A stretch of 64,000 bases of DNA from Bryobacterales bacterium (GCA_965204095.1 OZ241991.1:1360290-1424289); one strand, 5' to 3'; positions 11,147 through 47,326 are shown, numbered from the stretch's first letter. Notes: generated from the sequence alone by a model not told the origin. Made by a program: numbers and translations.

Positions 11147-12585
11147 CAAACCTTCCGCAACCGATCGATGACACAGTCGCGTCCGAGGATAGTGAAAATT
11201 GCGAATGCGCTAGGCCCGACGGACTGCCCGCTCAGCGCCGCGCGAGCACCGTTGATCATCAGTCCGGCTTTCATGCCCCGCTCTTCAGCCAAACTGCGAA
11301 GGGTGGTCTCGACGGACTCGCTGGTGAAGTCGTTCAAGGTTGCGAGACGATCGGCGAGTGCGCGAAGGGATTCACGGACACCCTCTTTGTTGAGGTTCTT
11401 TTCGGCCTTGATGTCGGTCGGGAACGTGTCGTTGAAATAAGCCGCGCCGCGCTCCGTGAAGTCCTTGAGGGTATTGAAGCGTGAACGGATGAGATCGACC
11501 GTGGATTCGAGCGAGGCCTTCCGGCCGGCTTCGTATTGGGGACGCCACCAGCCGGCCTCGCGGAGTTCGATTTCAACATGGGGAAGCAAATCTCTCACGG
11601 GCAAGCTGCGCAACTGTTGGCCATTGATCCAGAGCGCTTTGGGGTCGGCCCAGCTCTGCTCGGAGTCTTCGTCAAACGTAACGACGGCGTTGGTGCGGTT
11701 GACGCTTTCCAGTTTGAACAGCTCGATCAACTCGTTGCGGGTGAGCAGTTCTTGATTGTCTTTCGGCGACCAGCCAAGCAGGCACAGGTAGTTGATGATG
11801 CCTTGAGGCAGAAAGCCGTGATCGCGGTAGTTCGTGACGCTGACGATTTCGCCATGCCTGCGCTTGGAGAGTTTCGAACCGTCAGGGCCGAGCAGCAGCG
11901 GCAGATGGGCGAACTCGGGCGGATTCCCGCCCAGCGCCTCGAACAACAGAATGTGCTTGAAGGTGTTGGTGAGGTGGTCCTGGCCGCGGATGACGTGCGT
12001 AATGCCGAGGTCCGAGTCGTCGACGCTGGAGGCGAGGTGATAGGTCGGCGAGCCATTGCTCCGGAGCAGGGCGAAGTCCTCGATGTCGGCGATCTTGCGA
12101 GACTGTTCGCCGAACACGTGATCGTGGAAGGTGACGGTACGGTCGGTCCCGTGGGCCACGCGGAAACGGATGACGAACGGCTCGCCGGCGCTGGCTCGGC
12201 GCTCGCTTTCATCCTGTGTCAGTTCCCGCATGGCGGGGTTGGCGAGACGTACTTCGGCGGCATCCTTGGCTTCGGGCAAAGCGCTTTGCCGGGTGAAGTC
12301 GCGATAGGCAAGTCCTTTGGCGAGAAGAGCTTCGGCGGCCTCGACGTGCTTCGTGCGGCGCTCGGACTGATAGTGTTGCTCGTCCCAGGGCAGTTCGAGC
12401 CAGCGCAGGCCGTCGATGATGGATTGGAGAGCTTCGTCAGTGCTGCGCTCGCGGTCGGTGTCGTCGATCCGGAGGACCACCTTCCCGCCGTGCTGACGAG
12501 CGAAGAGCCAGTTGAAGATGTAAGTGCGAGCCCCGCCAATGTGCAAGAACCCCGTTGGGGATGGCGCAAAGCGAACGCGTGTCAT
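11146..12585 (-). CDS. gltX: glutamate--tRNA ligase
   Basis: MTRVRFAPSPTGFLHIGGARTYIFNWLFAR (HIGH motif) and ...KLSKRRHGEIV (KMSKS-like motif). About 480 codons. The ATG at 12585 sits one codon inside the track start. Confidence 0.95.
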   Translation of the reverse strand: MTRVRFAPSPTGFLHIGGARTYIFNWLFARQHGGKVVLRIDDTDRERSTDEALQSIIDGLRWLELPWDEQHYQSERRTKHVEAAEALLAKGLAYRDFTRQSALPEAKDAAEVRLANPAMRELTQDESERRASAGEPFVIRFRVAHGTDRTVTFHDHVFGEQSRKIADIEDFALLRSNGSPTYHLASSVDDSDLGITHVIRGQDHLTNTFKHILLFEALGGNPPEFAHLPLLLGPDGSKLSKRRHGEIVSVTNYRDHGFLPQGIINYLCLLGWSPKDNQELLTRNELIELFKLESVNRTNAVVTFDEDSEQSWADPKALWINGQQLRSLPVRDLLPHVEIELREAGWWRPQYEAGRKASLESTVDLIRSRFNTLKDFTERGAAYFNDTFPTDIKAEKNLNKEGVRESLRALADRLATLNDFTSESVETTLRSLAEERGMKAGLMINGARAALSGQSVGPSAFAIFTILGRDCVIDRLRKV

Positions 12586-12825
12586 CAAGAGTCGGAGGAG
12601 AAACGCCGGGGTTCAGGCAGGAAGCGGATGTTGTGGATTCGCCCGCCGTGTTCGAGGGCTCAGTATAGCAATCGAGGTCAGATTGCCCCGGATGTGGCGT
12701 CTTGCTCCGGGGCCGGTCAGCCTTTACGGGCAGGTCGACAAGTCTGTGAAAGCACATGACAGGAGTGACTTGACGGTCCGTGGTGAAATCCCGTGTAGCA
12801 CCGGCAGCGGGGCTCTTGCCATTAG

Positions 12826-13001
12826 CCTGCATTTCTCACCACGCGGCTAGGCGAAGTGCGTGAGAGGGCCGTCAGGACGAGGCGCGAGCCGCTTGGCGCG
12901 CGCAGGCGTACTTGACAGTACGTTGAGCACGGCAAGCAAGCGCAACGAAGTCCTGGCGGTCGTACCGCGTGCTTCGACCGCCGGGTGGTGAGAAATGCAG
13001 G
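12826..13001 (+). mobile_element. MITE copy 6 (subfamily A, 176 bp)
   Basis: Same terminal IRs. Flanks TTAG (12822-12825) / CTAG (13002-13005). Confidence 0.9.
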
Positions 13002-13005
13002 CTAG

Positions 13006-14070
13006 CCACTGCATTTAAGCTTTTCACGAAACACGAATCACGAGACACGAATCACGGCTTTTATGCTTTTCACGAAACACGGCCTTTCCCGTGGCTCGTT
13101 TGGTACCTGTTGGTACTGAAGCCCTTCAGTCTTGTTTTTTCGGCCGGAATCTGCTCTGGGTTGAGAGTGATGACGCCGTTGCTGGGAACGAAAACCTAAT
13201 CCACGCCCGTCGGGGACGCGCCGGCTGGATACAACAAAGTCGCCCAAGTCACGGCCTTTCAGGTATTTACGAGACCCGAGACACGAAACACGGCTTTAGC
13301 CTGGCGCGCGGCGCAAGCCGGCGCGAATTCCGAGGTATTCACGAAACACGAGACACCAGACACGAAACACGGCTTTTTTCAGACCCGAAACACGGCTTTT
13401 CCGTGGCTCGTTTGGTACCTGTTGGTACTGAAGCCCTTCAGTCTTTTTTTCGGCCGGGGGCTGGTTTAGGTTGAGAGTGATGACGCCGTTGCTGGGAACA
13501 ACAAACCCATCCGCGCCCGTCGGGGACGCGCCGGCTGGAGACAACAAAACCGCCCAAGTCACGGCCTTTCAGGTATTTACGAGACCCGAGACACGGCCAT
13601 TGCCAGGCGCGAGGCGCAAGCCGGCGCGAATTCCGAGGTTTTCACGAAACACGAAACACGAATCACGGCTTTTTTTCGAATCACGGCCTTTGTTGTGGCG
13701 CGGCATGGGGCGGCTATGGCGCGGCATGGGCGGCGACCGTCCCCCGCACCGGCAACACGGGTTTATGCATTTCACGAGACACGAGACACGAATCACGGCC
13801 TTTGGGGTGCTGAAGCCCTTCAGTCTTTTTTTCGGCGGAAGCCGGTTTAGGTTGAGAGTGATGACGCCGTTGCTGGGAACAAAAAACCCTTCCGCGCCCG
13901 TCGGGGCCGCGCCGGCTGGAGACAGAAGAGCCGGTCGGGCCACGGACTCCAAGGTTTTTCACGAAACACGAGACACGGGTTTGCTTGGCGCGCCGCGCAA
14001 GCCAGCGCGAATTCCGAGGTTTTCACGAAACACGAGGCACGAGACACGAATCACGGCTTTTATGCTTTTC
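13006..14070 (+). repeat. non-coding tandem array: 3.3 units of 302-381 bp, each containing CACGARA heptad runs
   Basis: Conserved 30-mer GTTGAGAGTGATGACGCCGTTGCTGGGAAC at 13160, 13470 and 13851. Hairpin plus T-run (CTGAAGCCCTTCAG then T7-9) at 13116, 13428 and 13810. GC hairpin with GCAA loop (GGCGCAAGCC) in each unit. Heptad runs at 13025-13058, 13071-13084, 13268-13294, 13340-13373, 13384-13396, 13578-13598, 13643-13669, 13677-13688, 13773-13800, 13960-13979 and 14024-14057, all in the same orientation. ORFs across it are not conserved in frame between units. Confidence 0.85.
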
Positions 14071-37191: not shown

Positions 37192-38394
37192 CTATGCGAA
37201 CAACTCCTCGACACGTGCCGCGACGATTTCGTGCTCGCCGGGCTTGAGCATCCACATGGAGATGCGCAGGCCCTCGGGGTTTTGCGAAACGGCGATCGCC
37301 GGTTCGCCCTCACGCAGTTTCTTGACCGCGTCGCCGGGTGTGAGACCTTTTGCGGCGGCATCCCAGCGAACGAGGACGTGGGGAACGCGATTGGCTATGG
37401 GCGGAATGTGTAGCTCGGTCTCGACTCCATCGACCCCGCCCACCGTCCGAATGACATGCTCGGCGCGGGCCTCGAGTTCACGTCGCTCGGCGTCGTGATC
37501 GATGCGGTGGTAACGCTCAACGGCGGCGAGCAGGCCCATGATCTCTTCCTTGCCGACCTTCATGCCCCGCCCAACGCCGGCGCGTGGGCTGCTGGCCTTG
37601 AGCGCGGCGGAGACAAGTTCGGCGTCGCCGAGCACAAGGCCGCTGGCCTGCGGTCCGAGTAGCCCCTTACCGCCGGAGAAGACGGCGAGATCGAAACCTT
37701 CGTCGATGTACTGGCGCAGCCGGCTGACGGGAGGAACATCGGAAGCACAGTCGTTCATCGTGGGGATGCCGTGTTTCTTGCCGATCTCGATCCAATCAGC
37801 TCGCGAGATCCGACCCCTGTGTTCGGCGACGTTCAAGAAGAACATCATGGCCGTGTGCTTGCTGATGGCCTTCTCGAGCTCTTCCCGCGTCTCGACCTCG
37901 ACGGGCCTGGCGCCGGCCATCCAAATCTGAGTGTCGAAGCCAAAGCGATGGCTTTTCTGGATGATGACTTCGTTGGGCATGCCGGTCGTGTCGGGTAGTT
38001 GGCGCAGCTTCTTGTTGTCGCCCCGCGTGACACAAGCCGCAGTCCCGACGGTCAGGCCGGAAGCCGCCCCACAGCAGATCATCGCGCCGGGAACGCCAAT
38101 GATCTCGGCGATGCGCTTGCCGACTTTCACTTGCAGCTCGGGTAGATCAATGAAGTTCCTGGATGCCTCGACCATCGCGGCGACGACCTCCGCTGGCATG
38201 ATCGAGCCTCCGAGAACCGTCACCACACCGACACCGTTGATGACGTGCCGTACGCCAAGGCTTTCGTAGGTAACCGTGCTGGTGGTTCCGCCGATCGGCG
38301 ATCGGGCGGACTCTCCGCAACCTGCAAGCCCGGCTGCGGCCGCGCCGGTTGTGGTTGCTTTGAGAAAACTTCTGCGGGTTCGGGATCGTTTCAT
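37192..38394 (-). CDS. SelA-like PLP-dependent enzyme with twin-arginine signal
   Basis: MKRSRTRRSFLKATTTGAAAAGLAGC (TAT signal, possible lipobox). ...DLAVFSGGKGLLGPQASGLV resembles the SelA-family PLP-lysine region (S-G-x-K-L-L-G-G-P-Q), from memory. Confidence 0.7.
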   Translation of the reverse strand: MKRSRTRRSFLKATTTGAAAAGLAGCGESARSPIGGTTSTVTYESLGVRHVINGVGVVTVLGGSIMPAEVVAAMVEASRNFIDLPELQVKVGKRIAEIIGVPGAMICCGAASGLTVGTAACVTRGDNKKLRQLPDTTGMPNEVIIQKSHRFGFDTQIWMAGARPVEVETREELEKAISKHTAMMFFLNVAEHRGRISRADWIEIGKKHGIPTMNDCASDVPPVSRLRQYIDEGFDLAVFSGGKGLLGPQASGLVLGDAELVSAALKASSPRAGVGRGMKVGKEEIMGLLAAVERYHRIDHDAERRELEARAEHVIRTVGGVDGVETELHIPPIANRVPHVLVRWDAAAKGLTPGDAVKKLREGEPAIAVSQNPEGLRISMWMLKPGEHEIVAARVEELFA

Positions 38395-38634
38395 GGTCAA
38401 TATCCTGCCGTTCTCCGGCCACGAGAATGTAACACATCAGGCGTCCGGGCTATTGATTCGCCCGCAATCCGCACGTATGCGGAAGCCTGACGAGAGATTC
38501 TGGTTGCGAATGACTCCGACAAGGTGTCCGAAGTTCAATGCGGCAAGGAGCGGCTATCATCAGCGGATGCGCTTGAAGCCAGAGAGAGTTTGTCGTATCT
38601 GGACGTTACAGGGCGAGGAGGTTCTCGGCCCTTG

Positions 38635-39465
38635 ATGTCCATAGCCGAAATGACTGGCTTCCCTCTCTTGGCCTGCGGCGCCACGGGTGCTCTTTGTCGA
38701 GGCGGTTCGGCGCGCAACTCTGTGTCGGAGCAAGGTCTGTTTACGAACGGAGTGGGACAGGTCGCCTGGTCTTTGTGCAACGAAATCACGGTACACTTGA
38801 CGTTTGGCCGTGTTACCGGGATGAGCCTCACGACCGATATCGGGCGCCGAATCGAGTTGGTCTCGATGGACTCGCATTTCCACGATATCTCGATCGGGCT
38901 CTATCGCCAATCAGGCGCGCAAGGTCCCGAGTTCCTCGTTCACACCTACAGCGGCCTTGACGGTGCACGGGAGCGAGTAGAGTTTGTAGCTCGGACGATG
39001 GTCCTTCTCGGCGGCATGGAGGCGGTCGAGGGCGATAGCCGGAGGGTAAAGTTTGCGTGCAACAGCTCGCACGATTTCGCTTGCAAGCGAGTATTCCTGG
39101 AATCTTGCAAATGGGACCCGGCCGTTGACGTCGAGCCGAAGCCGCTGACCATCTTCGACAGGAAGTCGGACGCAAACGTCACCGTCGAGAGCCTCGCCGA
39201 CGGCGTTTACCGTATCATCGGAGAGGCGCAGAGCGATCGGGGAGAAAAGCGCCGGACCGCTATCGGCGCCGGCCTTGTGAAGCTCGGAGAGATGGAATGG
39301 CTCGAAGGTGACGAGGAGCGCTTCGCGTTTCCCTGCAGGCACTCCCACGATAAACTGGTGGGGTTGCTGCTGATACGCGCGTTGAATGTCAGGGGCGTTG
39401 AGCGCGAACAGCAAATGGCGTTGGCCCGGGGACAGTTGCTGGCTCCCAGCGCTCAGAAACAGTAG
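38635..39465 (+). CDS. hypothetical protein built from three ~55-aa internal repeats (conserved [CS]-x2-S-H-x-D motif)
   Basis: Repeat cores: GRRIELVSMDSHFHD, GMEAVEGDSRRVKFACNSSHDF and GEMEWLEGDEERFAFPCRHSHDK. The repeats are about twice as conserved in this frame (12/24) as in the antisense ORF 38911-39414 (6/26), so I call the plus strand. Start uncertain: candidates are 38524 GTG, 38632 TTG, 38635 ATG and 38821 ATG. Confidence 0.55.
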   Translation: MSIAEMTGFPLLACGATGALCRGGSARNSVSEQGLFTNGVGQVAWSLCNEITVHLTFGRVTGMSLTTDIGRRIELVSMDSHFHDISIGLYRQSGAQGPEFLVHTYSGLDGARERVEFVARTMVLLGGMEAVEGDSRRVKFACNSSHDFACKRVFLESCKWDPAVDVEPKPLTIFDRKSDANVTVESLADGVYRIIGEAQSDRGEKRRTAIGAGLVKLGEMEWLEGDEERFAFPCRHSHDKLVGLLLIRALNVRGVEREQQMALARGQLLAPSAQKQ

Positions 39466-39476
39466 ACCTCTACGTT

Positions 39477-40502
39477 ATGAACGGACGTGAACGAGTCCTG
39501 GCTGCCTTGCGGCAAGAGCCGGTCGATCGTACGCCGGCTTGCAATCCAACCTCGTTGGCAACAGTGGAATTGATGGATCTGGTTGACACGCCATTTCCCG
39601 AAGCGAACCGCAATCCTGAGATGATGGCTCGCCTCGCCGCCACCGGCTACACCGAGTTGGGCTTCGATTCCATCATGCCGGTCTTCACGATCATCCAGGA
39701 GTCTTCGGCCTTGGGCTGCAAGATGCAATGGGAACAGAAGGACAACTGGCCCACGGTCAGAATGCGTGAGCCGATCTGGGTGGAACCCGACGACATCAAG
39801 CTGCCCTCGGACTTCCTCACGCACAACGACACGAAGTGCGTGACCGACGCGATCAAGATCTTGAAGAAGCAGTACGACGACGAAGTCGCGATTATCGGCA
39901 AGACGATGGGCCCCTGGACGTTGGGGTATCACTGCTTCGGCGTGGAACCGTTCCTGCTGATGTCGCTTGATGATCCCGGCAAGACGAAGTTATGTCTCGA
40001 CCGCATGAAAGAGGCGACGGTCGAGTATGGTACGGCGCAAATCGAGGCCGGTGCTGACGCCCTGACGCTGCCCGATCACGCGACCGGAGATCTGGTGAGC
40101 GGCGAGTACTACAAGGATTTCCTGCTTGATCTGCATATCGAGATGGTGGAAAGACTTCCGGTGCCGCTGATCCTCCATATCTGCGGCAAGACGCTTGATC
40201 GCATGGACTACATCGCGCAATCGGGCATGGCGGCTTTCCACTTCGACTCGAAGAATCCGCCGAGCGAGGCAATGGAGATCGTCAACGACCGAATCGCCCT
40301 CGTCGGCAACATCAACAACCCGGAAACTCTTTTCGCCAAGGGGCCCGAGGAGGTTCGACAGGAGGTGTATCGCAACCTCGAAGCGAATGTGAATTTGATC
40401 GGGCCCGAGTGTGCTATCCCGCTCCAAACGTCGATCGAAAACCTCAAGGAGATCCCCAAAGCCGTCAAAGAATGGCACCGGGAACACCCGACGCCAAACT
40501 GA
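39477..40502 (+). CDS. MtaA/CmuA-type (uroporphyrinogen-decarboxylase fold) corrinoid methyltransferase
   Basis: 341 aa, URO-D-like throughout. Putative zinc ligands in LILHICGKT (H-x-C) and GPECAIP (C), as in MT2-type methylcobamide methyltransferases. Confidence 0.8.
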   Translation: MNGRERVLAALRQEPVDRTPACNPTSLATVELMDLVDTPFPEANRNPEMMARLAATGYTELGFDSIMPVFTIIQESSALGCKMQWEQKDNWPTVRMREPIWVEPDDIKLPSDFLTHNDTKCVTDAIKILKKQYDDEVAIIGKTMGPWTLGYHCFGVEPFLLMSLDDPGKTKLCLDRMKEATVEYGTAQIEAGADALTLPDHATGDLVSGEYYKDFLLDLHIEMVERLPVPLILHICGKTLDRMDYIAQSGMAAFHFDSKNPPSEAMEIVNDRIALVGNINNPETLFAKGPEEVRQEVYRNLEANVNLIGPECAIPLQTSIENLKEIPKAVKEWHREHPTPN

Positions 40503-40521
40503 GGACCAGCGGCGCAAGGGC

Positions 40522-41283
40522 ATGGCTTCCATCAACGACATCGCGAACGAGCTTGTCCGCAACGAAATCGAGGAGTACCTGGAGCAGCCGGACGAACGGG
40601 AATCCGTCATCGAGACGTTCGTGAAGTGCAGTGCGTCGATGCAGGCGATCGGCGCGGCGCTCATTGACGGACAGCACAAGACCGTCGATCAGTTGACACA
40701 GAACGCGCTGGCGGATGGCGTGCCGGCACTCGAAGTGATGGATGACGGCTTGATCGCAGCGATGCGGATCGTGGGCATCAAGTTTCGCGAGAACTTCATC
40801 TATGTGCCGGAAGTGTTGAGTTGCGCGCGGGCCATGAAGGCCGGCATGGCGCACATCGAGCCCATTCTTTCGGCTTCGGGGATCGAGCCCATCGGCCGGG
40901 TCGTGATGGGGACGGTCAAGGGCGACCTGCACGACATTGGCAAGAACCTCTGCATCATGATGCTGCGCGGCGCGGGATTCGAGGTGTTCGATCTGGGCGT
41001 GGATACCTCCGCCGACGAGTTTCTGGAGGCGGTGGAGGGGCACAACGCGCCGCTCATGGGGATGTCCGCGCTGCTGACGACCACCATGCCGAACATGGCG
41101 GTGACAATCGAGACGTTCATCGACGAAGGCATCCGCGACGACGTGAAGGTCATGGTCGGCGGCGCGCCGGTGAGTCAGGAATTCGCTGACGATATGGGCG
41201 CCGACGGCTACGGAAAAGACGCCATGGAATGCGTCGCTCTCGCCAAGCGGTTGGTCAGCGAAGAAGTGGGAGCCGAGAGCTGA
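40522..41283 (+). CDS. corrinoid (cobalamin)-binding protein, MtaC/MtbC-like
   Basis: B12-binding motifs GDLHDIGKN (DxHxxG), SALLTTT and MVGGAP. The track start (40411) overlaps the upstream gene, so I re-set it to MASINDIANEL. Confidence 0.88.
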   Translation: MASINDIANELVRNEIEEYLEQPDERESVIETFVKCSASMQAIGAALIDGQHKTVDQLTQNALADGVPALEVMDDGLIAAMRIVGIKFRENFIYVPEVLSCARAMKAGMAHIEPILSASGIEPIGRVVMGTVKGDLHDIGKNLCIMMLRGAGFEVFDLGVDTSADEFLEAVEGHNAPLMGMSALLTTTMPNMAVTIETFIDEGIRDDVKVMVGGAPVSQEFADDMGADGYGKDAMECVALAKRLVSEEVGAES

Positions 41284-41566
41284 CAGTTCGTGGTAAAGTC
41301 CCGTGGAAGGTGCTGCGGGTTTCTGTGGTCGCAAGGCGCGGGGTGAGTAGGATGGCGATCCGCGTGATCTCCTCCTCGCGAAGGAAAAGCGAACGACAAA
41401 GCCGACGGCCGCAAACGTCTGTCGCCCGAAGGGTTACGCGCCACTTCCGCCCGGCTGCGCGGAAAGCGCGACGCCTCGTTGCTGGAACGGCCACGCATTA
41501 CGCAATCGGCCGCGGGGCACGTAACGCCGCCTATGTGACTTTTGCCACGGGCTGTTGACCTCCCTC

Positions 41567-41806
41567 ATGACAAAGATCGACAAAGAGGAATACCAGAAAC
41601 GTTTGGACCAGATCTCAGCGATATTCGCAGAGATGATCCAGCACGCCGACGAACTGTCGACCCAGCGCTGTCCCTACAAGAACCGTTTCGATCAATGCAC
41701 GGCAAAGTTCGGCTGCCGCAATCAACAGAAAACTGCCGTGGGCAAGTTGTTTCTGTGTGTCGGAGACGACAAGCTGGACTATCGCAGCGCTTGGGAAACC
41801 TCCTGA
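41567..41806 (+). CDS. small (79-aa) hypothetical protein with a C-x8-C-x5-C-x13-C motif
   Basis: MTKIDKEEYQKRLDQISAIFAEMIQHADELSTQRCPYKNRFDQCTAKFGCRNQQKTAVGKLFLCVGDDK... The composition looks coding-like. No SD is seen and no family is recognised. Confidence 0.5.
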   Translation: MTKIDKEEYQKRLDQISAIFAEMIQHADELSTQRCPYKNRFDQCTAKFGCRNQQKTAVGKLFLCVGDDKLDYRSAWETS

Positions 41807-42089: not shown

Positions 42090-43268
42090 CTAACTCACGG
42101 GAACCCAGCGCAAGCAAGCAGGCATTGGGACACTGAGCACTTGTCCCGTCGGAGTGAGCTTGCCTGTTTCCTGGTCGACCGCGAACGTTACGACGTTGCT
42201 CGTTCTTTGATTCTCGGCAAAGAGATACTTGCCCGTCGGGTCCAGATCGAAGTTGCGCGGTGTCTTTCCCTGCGTCGAAACCTGTTCGATGGCCGTCAGC
42301 ATGCCGCTGGCTTGGTCGATCGAAAAGACGGCGATCGAATCATGTCCGCGGTTCGAGCCATAGAGGAACTTGCCCGAGGGATGAGCACGCACCTCGGCGG
42401 TATGGCTGATCTCCGTGTAGCCTTCAGGAAGCGTGGAGATCATTTGGATCTCTTCCATCACTCCGGCCTCCGCGTCCCAGGTAAACGCGGTAATGGTATT
42501 GCCCATCTCGTTGATCGCGTAGCAGAACTTCCCCGACGGATGGAAGGTAAAGTGGCGCGGTCCGCCTCCGGCCTTGACCTTCGCTGACGGCGGGTCGTTC
42601 GGCTCGATCTTGCCTGTAGCCGGATCGGCTTTAAAGATAAACAGGTCATCCGTTCCCAGATCCGCGGTGATGACGAAACGGTCATCCAGTGAGAAATTGA
42701 CCGAGTGGGCGTGCGGCCCCTTCTGCCGTTGCTCGTTGACGCTGGAACCTTCGTGTTGCATAACGCTGACTGCTTCGCTCAGCTTGCCGTCAGCGTTGAC
42801 CTGGAAGGAAGCGGTGCTGCCGGCCCCGTAGTTGGCGACCGCCAGCATCCTGCCCGTCGAATCGAGGTTGAGGTGGCACGGTCCGGAGCCCTTCGACGAC
42901 ACCTGGTTCAGCAGCGTCAGTTTCCCCGTCTCATGATCGATCTGAAACGAACTCACGGCGCCCTCGCCTTCGAAGTCTTCCGTGACGGCGTAGAGGTACT
43001 GATGGTTCGGGTGAACGGCGACAAACGATGGATTGACGATTTCGGCCGCCAGGCCGATCTCGGTCATTTGACCCAAGCCCGAATCAAAGCGCCAGGCGTA
43101 GATTCCTTTGCCTCCACCCTCTGTTTTCGTGTAGGTCCCGAAATAAGCAAGATACTGTGGAGCGGAGGCTTCCTTGGATTCTTCCATTGATTCTGATTCG
43201 CAGCCGCCGTATCCGAGGACGAGAGTGAACAGAAGGCCGGCCGCGAGGTAAGTGATGGGGTTTCTCAT
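42090..43268 (-). CDS. lactonase, 7-bladed beta-propeller family (6-phosphogluconolactonase-like) lipoprotein
   Basis: MRNPITYLAAGLLFTLVLGYGGC (lipobox). Repeated ...HP.GK.LY..N... blades. The track start at 43361 was re-set to the ATG at 43268. TTGCAT-17-TTTATA lies on the minus strand just upstream (43274-43306). Confidence 0.82.
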   Translation of the reverse strand: MRNPITYLAAGLLFTLVLGYGGCESESMEESKEASAPQYLAYFGTYTKTEGGGKGIYAWRFDSGLGQMTEIGLAAEIVNPSFVAVHPNHQYLYAVTEDFEGEGAVSSFQIDHETGKLTLLNQVSSKGSGPCHLNLDSTGRMLAVANYGAGSTASFQVNADGKLSEAVSVMQHEGSSVNEQRQKGPHAHSVNFSLDDRFVITADLGTDDLFIFKADPATGKIEPNDPPSAKVKAGGGPRHFTFHPSGKFCYAINEMGNTITAFTWDAEAGVMEEIQMISTLPEGYTEISHTAEVRAHPSGKFLYGSNRGHDSIAVFSIDQASGMLTAIEQVSTQGKTPRNFDLDPTGKYLFAENQRTSNVVTFAVDQETGKLTPTGQVLSVPMPACLRWVPVS

Positions 43269-43442
43269 GCTGACTATATAAAGCGTAGTGAGCCGCGGAA
43301 TGCAAGCCGCCATAGACGCCGCGCACCTAGGAGCCTGTCCTACAGAAAATTTTGGCCCCAATCAGTTGTAGTCAGACTTGATCACAGACACAAGATATTG
43401 ACAAAAAATTGGCGATTTTCGTTCTGTGAGACAGACTCCTAG

Positions 43443-43754: not shown

Positions 43755-46721
43755 TTATCGATAGGTCACCCAGATAGGGCTCGACCAAGCCAACTCGCCA
43801 TCTTCCTGCTCGACTCGAACGTAGTACCAGTGCTCACCTGAGCCAGCATCATTGTCGACGTATTCGAACTCTACCTCTTGCTTACCGGGCTTGACCTGGT
43901 AAATGTAGGCTGCATCGCGAATGAGATGCACCGCTGACACCTCACCGGTGCCTCGCACTCGGACGTGGATCGGCTGCCTGCCGCTAGTGGTGAAGTCTTC
44001 GCCCATGAAGTGATCGCCGACGCGGAAGTCGAGGATGATATTGTCCGTCGCTCCGTACGTGCGGCGCTGACGGATGGCGTCGTGGATGCTTTCTCGGCTG
44101 GTATCGGGCGTATAAACCATGGCGTAAGAGATATGCGTCGAATAGTGGTCTGAGCTGGCAATGGTTCCGATACGATAGCCCTTCTTCCAGGCGTTCCACA
44201 CCATACCCGGTTCCTGAAAACCACGCGGTGCTTCGCCCCCGCGGCGGTCCATGAAGCCGCGCGGGGCGTTCCTGTGCTCATAGTTTTTCCGGGCGCCCTG
44301 ATAGATTTCGACCACCACGTCGACCTCGGGATCGTTGTCGGTCCAGTCAGTTCCCATACCGCTGGTGCCTGACGTGTGCGGAATGGCCAGGCCGTTGGTC
44401 TTTTTCACCACGTCGTAGAGCAGCTTCGTGTCATTGCGGATGCCGCTGCCGAAACTCATGCTGTTGAACGTCAGCAACTCGCCATCAGGGCTGTCGGGCA
44501 ACATGAAACGCGGGTCGATTCTCTGGAAGAATGGCACGATAGGATATTCGCGGTGCGTGTAGACCATGTTGCGATGGCCCAAAGGATTTCCGAGGTTTCT
44601 CTCGTAGCCATACAAGGTCGAGAAACGTTCCGGGAAATGGTACATGTCGGCCATCTTCTGAGTGATGAAGTTCCAATAATCGGTGCCGCCGGCCTGATGG
44701 TCGGTGGAGGCCCCGAAATCCATCTCGGCGGCGTCGATCATGTAGCGATAGAACTCGGGCAGCGTACCGTCATCCATGCCGCCTACGTCTTGTGACAACT
44801 CCGTGTGGCGGTGAAGGTCGCCCCGCACGATCCGCAGAGTTTCGCCGCCGAGCCCGATCCGATAGTTGCGGATCGCACGCACGTCTTCTCGCTCGTTCGG
44901 ATGCACTTCGAGTGAGGATGAAGGCGCCGGGCGGTAGAGGCTCAGAAGAGGCTTGCCCCCCGGACCGGGCAAGGTGATCGATCCTGCAATGACGCGATTC
45001 AGAAGCGGCCGGCTCGCAAACGCCCAATTGCGGTTCTCGTACGGCCAAAACATCCACAGCCGCCCATCGGCAGAAGCCAGACCCATGCGTGTGCTTTTTC
45101 GGGCCCAACTGTCGGGCAGCACGATCGGATCGGACCACCGATCGCTTGCGAGACGCGAGATCGCATACTCCCAGTAGATGCTGGGGCGATAGGCCATGCG
45201 GCTATAGCGCCGCTTAAAAGACATCCAGAGATTTCCATCCGGGTCGAAGTGGAGTAGTGGCCGGCTCTCGCCGGTCGCGCCCAGGGCCAGAGGGTCGTTG
45301 GGCTCGAACGTCGCCGGCGACTTCCAAACATTGTTATCAAGACATACGACCTCGATGCGCCGTGTTTCGCCTAGCGGCGTGCCGGGAGCACTGTCGCCGA
45401 GCGCCGCGCCAAGGTCCTTGCCCCAGTTGACTCCGCTGGTCTCCCAAGCAACCCACGGACGACCCATGTCATCGACCGCCACGCTGGTGTGCGCCTCGAA
45501 GCGTTCATTCGTTGTCACCTGCCTCTCTGCACCGAGCCCATCGGCGAGCGAGAAACGACGCAGATGGATATCGTAGTTGCCGTTGTAGCGGTCCCACGCG
45601 ATCCAGACGGCTCCGCCGCCCGCGGCTACCGACGGCTCCCAGTTGTTCGCGTCGCTGTTGGTAACCGAGAGAGCCTCTGACCAGCGACCGCCTTGCAGAT
45701 ATTTCAGCTTGACCTGAGAGTAACGGCCTTCCAGGGCCTGCCACACGACGTAGATGGCACCGTCGGATCCTCGCGCGATGTGCGGCTCGATATCAGGCAG
45801 GGGATTGTCGGTCAAGCGATGTAGCTCACCCCATTCGTTGTCCTCCCAAGCCATGGCGTAGATATCCCAGTTGCCGTGGCCGCCGTCGGCCAACTGTTGC
45901 GACCAGATCAGCCACGGTCTGCCGCCACTGTCAGTCGCAATCTGGGGACGCCACAAATCTTCCGCGGCGCGGCCGACAGGAATGAGCCGCGTCCATTTTC
46001 CATCCTGGCAGCGCCTTAGGTTGAGCTCTTCGCGGCGGTCGTGATAGCTATACCAAGTCGTCCACAGGGTTCCGTCTTCCGCAGCGGCGATCGCAGGCGA
46101 ATCATGCTGCCTCAACTCGGTGCCCGACAAGTCGGTCACCGGCGGAATGCGCGCGACCGTGGCGCGTCCATCGAGCTGCTCCTGCCAAACACCGAATTCC
46201 ATCGCCATCGGAGCAAAGCTGAACTTGCCCTGCTCCGTACTAACTGCCACACGGGTGCCTGAAGTTCCCTTGCCTCGAACCAGTAACCCTTTCGGAAGCA
46301 CAGCTTGTCTCACCGCGGGCCTGCCGCGCCCCGCCAATGAAGAGCCTTCGAGAATCCTGACCCTTTGGGTCCGAAGTGTCCATCCACCCTGAGGAAGCAC
46401 GCGATCCGGAGGCTCGAAACGGTATCCCTCGATGTCGAAGACTTCCCCGCCTTGCAGCGACAGGTTGCCATTCCAGGAAACAGGCTGCCTTGCACCGACT
46501 CCCAAAAGGATCAGCACTTGCCACAGATCCTGTTCCGGCGTCCCCCCGGGGTGCCAGGAAAAACGAGCCTGGTGGTCGAGGTCTTCCGTGGCGCGTTCCG
46601 TGAGGACATCCCGGCCACCGGCTTGCTGGGCAATCACTGCCGTTGGGACCCAGACGTTGAAACAGACGCCCAGCAGTGCCAAGAAACTCAACGGCGACAA
46701 AGGAAGAGCAAGCTTTTTCAT
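43755..46721 (-). CDS. large secreted protein: W-rich beta-propeller-like repeats plus a C-terminal PHP/DUF3604-like metal-dependent hydrolase region
   Basis: Re-set start MKKLALPLSPLSFLALLGVCF (46721). Repeats of the ...G..W(I/V)(A/V)W... type. C-terminal GDLHRHTELS...ASTDHQ...IPHTSG...SSDH His/Asp clusters. The function is only suggested. Confidence 0.7.
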   Translation of the reverse strand: MKKLALPLSPLSFLALLGVCFNVWVPTAVIAQQAGGRDVLTERATEDLDHQARFSWHPGGTPEQDLWQVLILLGVGARQPVSWNGNLSLQGGEVFDIEGYRFEPPDRVLPQGGWTLRTQRVRILEGSSLAGRGRPAVRQAVLPKGLLVRGKGTSGTRVAVSTEQGKFSFAPMAMEFGVWQEQLDGRATVARIPPVTDLSGTELRQHDSPAIAAAEDGTLWTTWYSYHDRREELNLRRCQDGKWTRLIPVGRAAEDLWRPQIATDSGGRPWLIWSQQLADGGHGNWDIYAMAWEDNEWGELHRLTDNPLPDIEPHIARGSDGAIYVVWQALEGRYSQVKLKYLQGGRWSEALSVTNSDANNWEPSVAAGGGAVWIAWDRYNGNYDIHLRRFSLADGLGAERQVTTNERFEAHTSVAVDDMGRPWVAWETSGVNWGKDLGAALGDSAPGTPLGETRRIEVVCLDNNVWKSPATFEPNDPLALGATGESRPLLHFDPDGNLWMSFKRRYSRMAYRPSIYWEYAISRLASDRWSDPIVLPDSWARKSTRMGLASADGRLWMFWPYENRNWAFASRPLLNRVIAGSITLPGPGGKPLLSLYRPAPSSSLEVHPNEREDVRAIRNYRIGLGGETLRIVRGDLHRHTELSQDVGGMDDGTLPEFYRYMIDAAEMDFGASTDHQAGGTDYWNFITQKMADMYHFPERFSTLYGYERNLGNPLGHRNMVYTHREYPIVPFFQRIDPRFMLPDSPDGELLTFNSMSFGSGIRNDTKLLYDVVKKTNGLAIPHTSGTSGMGTDWTDNDPEVDVVVEIYQGARKNYEHRNAPRGFMDRRGGEAPRGFQEPGMVWNAWKKGYRIGTIASSDHYSTHISYAMVYTPDTSRESIHDAIRQRRTYGATDNIILDFRVGDHFMGEDFTTSGRQPIHVRVRGTGEVSAVHLIRDAAYIYQVKPGKQEVEFEYVDNDAGSGEHWYYVRVEQEDGELAWSSPIWVTYR

Positions 46722-47326
46722 TCTCGACCAGGACTTCCATTCTCGTCTTGGCACGGCGCCAGTGTACACTCGCGCTGCTCCGAATGCTATTTCTGTTCGC
46801 GCTGAATCCTTCACGTCATCTCCACGGGTATGTGCCCGGGCTCTTCTATCCATTCTCAGACGTTGATTGGGCTGAATGAACAGCGGCCAGTGCCAAGTCC
46901 AGGTGTTTGGCAATGGCCGGGCTTTACACAGTAAGAATCATCCGCAGGAACGGCACGGGTCAGGTGAGGCGAGTTTCGAGGAGCAGTATGGCTATTCCGG
47001 CGACGGCAGCGGTCAAACCCGAACTGATTTTCCAGGGTTGCTTCTTCACCAAACATGAGGCAGGAAGCGCTCGGCTTGGCTTTGGACCCGGTCGGGAATC
47101 TCTCATTTACCGGCTTCATTGCAAAATTCGACCGGTGGAGTTGGGTCGATTCCGAAAATCGCCGTCGGACGAAGGTCAGAGCATTCCACCGACCCGAGCC
47201 ACTTCAGACGGCGGCGTCTTCACGACCTTCGGCGGCGCCTTTGCGGAGAAAGGAATGTTCGCCCCGATGACGGCCGAGGGCTTCGTTGACAGGCGATTCT
47301 TCCCGAGGGAGCTTTTTGACCGGTCT

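Follow-up and report, generated by a model that had tools for sequence, protein, structure and literature searches.

A corrinoid methyltransferase gene cluster of Bryobacterales and other bacteria with two conserved protein families that lack a database description

A four-gene cluster on the plus strand

We analyzed a 64,000-nucleotide (nt) stretch of a Bryobacterales bacterium genome (GCA_965204095.1, OZ241991.1:1360290-1424289), hereafter the window, which carries a corrinoid methyltransferase gene cluster at 38.4-41.8 kb. Four co-directional open reading frames (ORFs) lie there on the plus strand, between two minus-strand genes. The first (38821-39465) encodes a 214-amino-acid (aa) protein of an undescribed family with a two-fold internal repeat. 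The second (39477-40502) encodes a zinc methyltransferase of the uroporphyrinogen decarboxylase (URO-D) fold, placed by Pfam and NCBIfam matches in the MtaA/CmuA subfamily and its coenzyme-M-methyltransferase-like branch. The third (40522-41283) encodes a 253-aa corrinoid (B12-binding) methyl-carrier protein, and the fourth (41567-41806) a 79-aa protein with four cysteines, free-standing here, that homologs and fusions mark as an accessory module of the ATP-dependent reductive activase RACo. Gaps of 11 and 19 nt join the first three genes, and the four-Cys gene lies 283 nt further downstream because an insertion of ~272 bp (41286-41558, no strand) separates it from the corrinoid gene.

An initial annotation, made from the DNA sequence of the window, had described these four genes and their shared orientation correctly, including the MtaA/CmuA-type methyltransferase, the B12-binding protein with its DxHxxG/SxL/GG motifs, and the 79-aa four-Cys protein. 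Its statement that the genes are tightly spaced applies to the first three and fails for the fourth. No cobalamin riboswitch had been evident, and Rfam searches likewise gave zero matches in the locus, even at E <= 5. The start of the first gene had been set at 38635 and is corrected here to the ATG at 38821, where homologs of other lineages begin at the equivalent Met. Between 38635 and 38820 the frame contains an in-frame stop in three (L008, L009, and L010) of the four closest relatives (L008-L011, Bryobacterales metagenome-assembled genomes), and its ratio of nonsynonymous to synonymous substitution rates (dN/dS) against them is 0.8-1.4 without third-position bias. These in-frame stops and the neutral dN/dS identify 38401-38820 as a non-coding upstream region (plus strand; promoter and 5' leader).

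Conservation of the cluster across species

Distribution of the cluster was analyzed by scanning one genome per GTDB species, which yielded 314 loci; 80 of these were retrieved, and all counts out of 80 refer to them. More than 300 bacterial species, most of them uncultured, carry the core. The retrieved loci belong to Poribacteria (34), Bryobacterales/Solibacteraceae (20), Vicinamibacterales (6), other Acidobacteriota (6), Latescibacterota (6), Opitutales (2), Alphaproteobacteria (2), Versatilivorator (2), Acidimicrobiia (1), and Gemmatimonas (1). The URO-D gene directly follows the gene for the 214-aa protein in 79 of the 80 loci, and the corrinoid gene then follows in 66. A four-Cys module is present in all 65 corrinoid-bearing loci with enough sequence to judge. 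This gene order (214-aa protein, URO-D, corrinoid, four-Cys) is kept across Acidobacteriota, Poribacteria, Latescibacterota, Opitutales, Alphaproteobacteria, Acidimicrobiia, and Gemmatimonas. The four genes are thus co-conserved across genomes, and the two proteins left unassigned by the initial annotation are real, conserved components of a corrinoid system. Searches of the literature returned no account of this cluster.

In 57 of the 65 loci, the same operon continues with RACo (Fer2, Raco_middle, and RACo_C_ter domains). In 34 loci the four-Cys module is fused to the RACo N-terminus, upstream of Fer2; in about half it stands alone. The only loci without RACo are eight from Bryobacterales (L008-L011, L021, L023, L026, and L027), which have the four-gene form seen in the window. 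Most of the 57 RACo-bearing loci also encode a second methyltransferase within 10 kb, either a PF02574 protein or a PF00809 protein, the latter often with methylenetetrahydrofolate reductase (MTHFR). These genes form two types of sink module, downstream of RACo, that alternate between loci while the core is constant. The first, seen in Acidobacteriota, is a PF02574 homocysteine S-methyltransferase-family protein; these proteins are ~84% identical among themselves and BHMT/YitJ-like, with a score of 203 bits to the "BHMT" model PRK07534, below its cut-off of 338. The second consists of an MTHFR with a DUF5981 domain and a pterin-binding methyltransferase, often accompanied by a PF13769 protein and by another, distant member of PF02574. 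In about a dozen Acidobacteriota operons, URO-D and the PF02574 protein are the sole methyltransferases, with no Pterin_bind gene within 10 kb.

A divergent GntR/FCD regulator gene lies upstream in 33 loci. Its best NCBIfam matches are NanR, LldR, PdhR, and GlcC, all below their cut-offs, which hints at a small carboxylate inducer and, as weak evidence, at a carboxylate substrate such as methylmercaptopropionate. A distant subfamily of the 214-aa protein, from marine metagenomes, occurs in the order PF02574, 214-aa protein homolog, URO-D, and Pterin_bind, with overlapping gene ends; another locus of this distant subfamily reads 214-aa protein homolog, URO-D, corrinoid protein, and then a small ORF.

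The methyltransferase and its corrinoid partner

The URO-D protein matches PF01208 over residues 4-333 (E = 5e-67), a full-length fold. It scores above the cut-offs of TIGR01463 (mtaA_cmuA; 255.5 versus 235.4 bits) and PRK06252 (266.8 versus 244) and below those of the equivalog models NF040654 (MtaA_Meth; 238 versus 400) and NF041608 (MtbA; 204 versus 600). A search of PDB sequences matched only MtaA and uroporphyrinogen decarboxylases, and identity to M. mazei MtaA (4ay7) is 31% over 328 positions. In the alignment with the 4ay7 structure sequence, residues H234, C236, and C312 fall on the motifs LHICG and PGCG, whose HxC and C positions are the known zinc ligands, and this His-Cys-Cys triad is kept in 77 of the 80 orthologs. 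Within the URO-D superfamily, His-Cys-Cys is reported as the signature of S- and Se-methyltransferases, O-demethylases having one or both cysteines replaced, and identity among the coenzyme M methyltransferases is reportedly only ~30% (PMC10418091). The window and all 80 loci each have a single URO-D gene.

Orthologs of the URO-D protein (loci L008-L087, seven or more phyla) have a median identity of 81% to the window copy, versus only 50-60% across orthologs of the 214-aa protein. This disparity suggests recent horizontal spread of the operon, an unusually strong constraint on URO-D, or both.

The corrinoid protein contains a B12-binding_2 domain (PF02607, E = 6.6e-19) and a B12-binding domain (PF02310, E = 3.3e-27), and its translation has the motifs DLHDIG, SAL, and GG. 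Its best NCBIfam matches are of the MtgC type and fall below the cut-off (MtgC_2, 202 versus 370), as do its scores to other named subfamilies (TIGR02370, 178.8 versus 215.3; MtbC, 169 versus 350; MtaC, 127 versus 420).

Two protein families without a database description

The 214-aa protein and the four-Cys protein represent two conserved families that have no database description, and the former has no detectable fold relative. For the 214-aa protein, Pfam and NCBIfam searches gave no match even at E <= 1. Its 276 homologs, ~210 aa in length and without a Pfam domain, are all unnamed or "hypothetical," and a filter-free hidden Markov model search of 1.84 billion representative proteins returned only 277 matches, all from this family. 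An unrelated homolog of either protein, which would have spoken against the initial annotation, was not found in Pfam, NCBIfam, and large protein searches. No informative domain fusion was present among its 150 best matches, nearly all at most ~210 aa long, with two of 345 and 359 aa left out. One apparent natural fusion of the 214-aa and URO-D proteins (P0008, 471 aa; L007, 1778-3193) was rejected, as it lies on a contig of 4x coverage and its URO-D match is split across frames; it is probably a frameshift artifact.

The triple repeat attributed earlier to this protein resolves into two repeats only (hhalign, 96.7%, E = 3.5e-10, residues 33-92 versus 125-184). Each repeat carries one F-x-C-x3-H motif, and alignment of the homologs shows invariant residues that include C80, H84, C172, H176, and D177. 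The presence of one such motif per repeat suggests a Cys2His2 site at the repeat interface. The C-terminal tail, RGxLxAPSAQ, is strongly conserved; in the distant subfamily, at 26-31% identity, it is replaced by another conserved tail, GQMTTxTLGFS. An AlphaFold model of the 214-aa protein is of good overall confidence (predicted local distance difference test [pLDDT] 87, predicted template-modeling score [pTM] 0.83), with very low confidence for the last tail residues. Compared with the PDB by Foldseek, this model gave a best E of 0.17 and query-normalized TM-scores of at most 0.21. Scattered Foldseek matches to PUR-repeat proteins were not significant, and that relationship was rejected. A profile search of PDB sequences gave only antibody light-chain noise (E >= 0.018).

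The four-Cys family comprises 364 homologs of ~80 aa, with no Pfam or NCBIfam match even at E <= 1. Cysteines C35, C44, C50, and C64 are invariant, in the pattern RCPYKxRxxxCTAxFGCRN...C. Over residues 1-80 of the L004 RACo (638 aa), upstream of its Fer2 domain, the window protein shows 69% identity; it matches only this N-terminal extension and no part of the RACo body (Fer2, Raco_middle, RACo_C_ter). Fused to RACo in 34 loci, the four-Cys protein is an N-terminal add-on of the activase and not a replacement for it.

The insertion that precedes the four-Cys gene in the window (41286-41558) is absent from L008-L011, in which the corrinoid and four-Cys genes are ~12 nt apart. Its ends pair with each other (minimum free energy, -117.7), and TGAC/TTGAC flanks it. 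The final 42 nt match window positions 16296-16256 (86%, E = 2e-6). Gene spacing in L093-L095, which encode an identical URO-D protein, implies the same insertion there. The element may be a miniature transposable element (MITE), and a terminator-like hairpin lies within it at 41300-41319.

State of the window copy

The window copy encodes one methyltransferase, not the two plus an activase of a complete three-component system, and most relatives are complete. No gene for RACo, Pterin_bind (PF00809), S-methyl_trans (PF02574), or MTHFR was found by tblastn in the window. The earlier observation that no activase is recognizable therefore stands for the window itself. The premise that no substrate methyltransferase (MT1) is recognizable is weak, since URO-D-family enzymes can serve the substrate side, as they do in the MtsA, MtpA, CmuA, and O-demethylase systems (PMC10418091). 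The system as such lacks neither an activase nor a second methyltransferase, because most relatives continue with both an activase and a sink. The "orphan" state is a local gene-order variant of some Bryobacterales and does not characterize the system. The activase and sink genes of the window strain and of the eight other Bryobacterales must presumably be encoded elsewhere. All four window genes are under purifying selection relative to L008-L011 (dN/dS 0.08-0.40), with the gene for the 214-aa protein evolving fastest and the URO-D gene slowest, and the four-Cys gene at 0.08-0.15. Flanking synteny of the locus is stable.

Proposed mechanism and alternatives

We assign a probability of about 0.6 to the following reading as a whole. 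In it, the four genes make up the unvarying part of a corrinoid-dependent methyl-transfer operon that spread horizontally, with URO-D and the 214-aa protein on the donor side and the four-Cys protein assisting RACo. URO-D, through its S-methyltransferase-type His-Cys-Cys zinc site and together with the 214-aa protein, would transfer a methyl group from a methyl-sulfur, possibly a methyl-selenium, compound to Co(I) of the corrinoid protein. From there, the methyl group would pass to homocysteine, giving methionine, or to tetrahydrofolate (THF), and methyl-THF would then be oxidized by MTHFR. Oxidized Co(II) would be re-reduced by RACo, for which the four-Cys protein could be a metal-binding N-terminal module for electron entry or docking. 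As an obligate partner subunit, the 214-aa protein would confer specificity or act as a gate.

URO-D is most likely the donor-side enzyme, because the sinks are exchanged between loci and some operons hold only URO-D and a PF02574 thiol methylase. The substrate is most likely a methyl-sulfur and less likely a methyl-selenium compound, given the near-universal retention of the His-Cys-Cys triad and its description as an S/Se signature (PMC10418091). A more specific proposal, which we advance only tentatively, is that the 214-aa protein, a Cys2His2 metal-binding subunit with a new fold, converts a homolog of the methanogen-type coenzyme M methyltransferases into a substrate-specific demethylase in oxygen-exposed bacteria. 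Together with the four-Cys activase module, it might constitute an undescribed methyl-S/Se route to methionine and folate one-carbon (C1) units in sponge symbionts and Acidobacteriota.

Several observations weigh against the reading given above. The direction of methyl flow through URO-D is deduced from operon logic only, and MtaA transfers methyl groups the opposite way, from a methyl-corrinoid to a thiol. The 214-aa protein has neither a homolog of known function nor a fold match, and its role is one that we infer. A few members of its distant subfamily lack the Cys/His residues, so a metal site is not universal in the family. For the four-Cys protein, AlphaFold gave a poor model (pLDDT 63) that is confident only in an N-terminal helix, and binding of a cluster or of zinc is therefore a guess from the cysteine pattern. 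In the window, the terminator-like hairpin of the insertion may uncouple the four-Cys gene from the operon. Lastly, nine Poribacteria loci have the 214-aa protein and URO-D with no corrinoid protein gene within 10 kb, which makes these two proteins the tightest pair of the cluster.

The direction of transfer by MtaA, the nearest characterized homolog, favors a converse arrangement in which URO-D acts on the acceptor side. Methyl-THF would then feed the pterin-binding methyltransferase and, through it, the corrinoid protein, and URO-D would pass the methyl group to a thiol bound or presented by the 214-aa protein, in a biosynthetic or detoxifying thiol methylase. MTHFR and Pterin_bind, present in many operons, could provide the methyl-THF, and the retained zinc site is also expected under this arrangement. 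However, PF02574 enzymes methylate thiols and do not donate methyl groups, and URO-D would therefore have to be the donor side in the dozen or so Acidobacteriota operons that have only URO-D and PF02574 methyltransferases and no Pterin_bind gene nearby. Moreover, in the Ruegeria analog the same set of sinks takes methyl groups from a catabolic methyltransferase (PMC12478193). We therefore regard acceptor-side action as unlikely and retain the donor-side assignment.

The methyl compound could contain selenium (methylselenol or dimethylselenide), and a His-Cys-Cys site suits sulfur and selenium equally; an Mlp2 enzyme methylates selenide (PMC10418091). A SelA-related gene adjoins the cluster in the window, but it encodes a DgaE-family enzyme of the pyridoxal phosphate (PLP)-dependent ammonia-lyase type on the opposite strand and is missing from most related loci. 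The loci have one URO-D gene as against the two or three paralogs that define type 1 clusters, their hosts are not obligate anaerobes, and the sinks (homocysteine, and THF with MTHFR) point to use of the methyl carbon. A selenium substrate thus appears improbable.

The initial annotation had proposed that the two then-unassigned proteins replace the missing substrate methyltransferase and/or activase, which would make the four genes self-sufficient. The lack of RACo, PF02574, PF00809, and MTHFR genes in the window agrees with this, as does the recurrence of the four-gene form, under purifying selection, in eight other Bryobacterales loci. However, both proteins coexist with a canonical RACo in 57 related loci, mostly with a second methyltransferase as well, and in the 34 fusion loci the four-Cys protein is physically part of RACo. 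They are hence not substitutes, and we give a self-sufficient system little credence.

It is very improbable that the 214-aa protein is itself a methyl donor or acceptor, that is, a protein substrate or a methyl relay acting through a conserved Cys or the C-terminal tail. Its invariant Cys/His residues, its strict pairing with URO-D, and its conserved, low-confidence tail, whose sequence differs between subfamilies, could be read in this way, but the enzyme family offers no precedent for this, Cys is absent from the tail, and the Cys/His residues are missing in some distant members. Operons designed for a catalytic flow to THF and MTHFR are also hard to reconcile with a protein substrate used stoichiometrically. 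There is hardly any chance that the window copy is a decaying, functionless remnant of a full operon, as the missing activase and sink genes and the hairpin-bearing insertion might suggest, since all four ORFs are intact and under purifying selection relative to the four relatives that share the reduced form, within stable flanking synteny.

Comparison with known corrinoid systems

In terms of function, the donor-side operon proposed here parallels most closely the split methionine synthase/glycine betaine methyltransferase (Mtg) system (PMC12478193; Price et al. 2018, PMC5764234, as cited there), with URO-D and the 214-aa protein apparently in the place of MtgB. The Mtg system of Ruegeria pomeroyi and Phaeobacter inhibens provides a precedent in aerobes for one corrinoid protein shared by substrate, pterin-binding, and homocysteine methyltransferases: MtgC serves MtgB, MtgD, and MtgE, with RamA, DUF1638, and MetF2, and MtgE is described as homologous to the predicted Bhmt of S. 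meliloti (PMC12478193). Both systems occur in non-anaerobic hosts and have a free corrinoid protein, which here has MtgC-type best matches, and a RACo/RamA-type activase. Both also have a pterin-binding methyltransferase, a PF02574 homocysteine methyltransferase, and a dedicated MTHFR paralog, and the relatives of the window have all of these in one operon. They differ in that MtgB belongs to the MttB family, whereas the cluster described here has an MtaA-like URO-D enzyme and the 214-aa protein, and in that DUF1638 is found there and a four-Cys mini-protein, often fused to RACo, here. DUF1638 (PF07796) was not matched by either the 214-aa or the four-Cys protein, which had no Pfam match at E <= 1 in a sequence-profile search only. 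The window lacks equivalents of MtgD, MtgE, RamA, and MetF2, whereas the operons of its relatives have them. No MttB-sized family is among the co-conserved neighbor families, a survey that included no search aimed at MttB.

The methanogen enzymes MtaA, MtbA, MtsA, and MtpA share with the window enzyme the URO-D fold, the His-Cys-Cys site, ~31% identity (to MtaA), and a small corrinoid partner. In contrast, the hosts here are bacteria without known coenzyme M methanogenesis, the sinks are homocysteine and THF, and URO-D is always paired with the 214-aa protein, whereas the methanogen enzymes need no extra protein.

Type 1 mlp clusters likewise combine a bacterial coenzyme-M-methyltransferase-like URO-D enzyme with a corrinoid protein and a RACE activase, the THF methyltransferase is often missing, and a methyl-S/Se role has been proposed for them. 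These clusters have at least two URO-D paralogs (Mlp2 and Mlp3) and are reported only from obligate anaerobes, mostly Firmicutes (Kountz and Balskus, PMC10418091). The cluster in the window has a single URO-D enzyme and two new accessory proteins and is found in other phyla; membership in type 1 mlp was rejected, as there is no Mlp2 and Mlp3 pair and only one URO-D gene per locus.

In the chloromethane systems CmuAB (of aerobes) and CdmBCA (PMC13222342) and in the acetogen O-demethylases, as in the mechanism proposed above, a URO-D-family enzyme loads the corrinoid, and THF transfer and MTHFR oxidation follow. The methyltransferase and corrinoid domains are fused in CmuA and separate here. CdmB and the O-demethylases fall within another branch of the URO-D family, and O-demethylases replace zinc-site cysteines (PMC10418091) that are kept here; membership in the Cdm or O-demethylase systems was rejected on gene content and URO-D branch. 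The mec cassette of anaerobic dichloromethane degradation (PMC9768040) also brings several corrinoid-dependent methyltransferases and a corrinoid protein together with a RACE activase and DUF proteins. It differs in its three URO-D proteins, two-component regulator, transporter, and Peptococcaceae hosts, and has no homolog of the 214-aa or four-Cys protein, so that membership was rejected on gene content.

Corrinoid-dependent methyl transfer outside anaerobes has been recognized only recently, through the roseobacter Mtg/split-MetH system. With the operon considered here, its range would grow to include Acidobacteriota, Poribacteria, Latescibacterota, and other phyla, and the methyltransferase would be a different one, of methanogen type. 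The two families are targets for work on the origin of substrate specificity in URO-D methyltransferases and on the delivery of electrons to RACo-type activases. Should the substrate be a methyl-sulfur compound (such as methanethiol, dimethyl sulfide, or methylmercaptopropionate), the operon would be relevant to the cycling of sulfur and C1 units in sponge holobionts, soils, and lakes.

Neighboring genes and other features of the loci

As the initial annotation had stated, the flanking genes lie on the opposite strand and encode a SelA-like enzyme with a twin-arginine translocation (TAT) signal and a lactonase. The upstream neighbor (37192-38400, minus strand) is a SelA-related, DgaE-family PLP enzyme whose best matches are to the D-glucosaminate-6-phosphate ammonia-lyase family, below the cut-offs. 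It scores 197 bits to TIGR01437 (cut-off, 385.3) and falls far under the SelA cut-off. Given its TAT signal, a periplasmic location would be unusual for the DgaE family. The downstream neighbor (42090-43361, minus strand) is a 7-bladed lactonase. Beside it, close relatives retain a large minus-strand ORF (43755-46913; 1052 aa at most, 988 aa as called in L093) that has only a weak local DUF3604 match.

In the leader, a ~30-nt block (~38780-38812) just 5' of the first gene is nearly invariant across the window and L008-L011, the other leader sequence being neutral. This block, which has no Rfam match, may be an operator or an element of the 5' untranslated region.

Poribacteria loci with only the 214-aa protein and URO-D include L056, L063, L071, L072, L078, L079, L082, and L084. 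Genes for PQQ_2 beta-propeller and beta-lactamase-family proteins precede the pair in most of them (not in L082), and small thioredoxin-like and dockerin-like ORFs follow it in several. Four other Poribacteria loci (L034, L041, L043, and L055; ~11700-12560) have a two-gene cassette between the URO-D and corrinoid genes, one gene having an HNH-nuclease-like motif. In the Vicinamibacterales locus L013, a 468-aa ORF (12518-13924), possibly a transposase, lies between the corrinoid and four-Cys genes. Such selfish-looking inserts interrupt the operon repeatedly.

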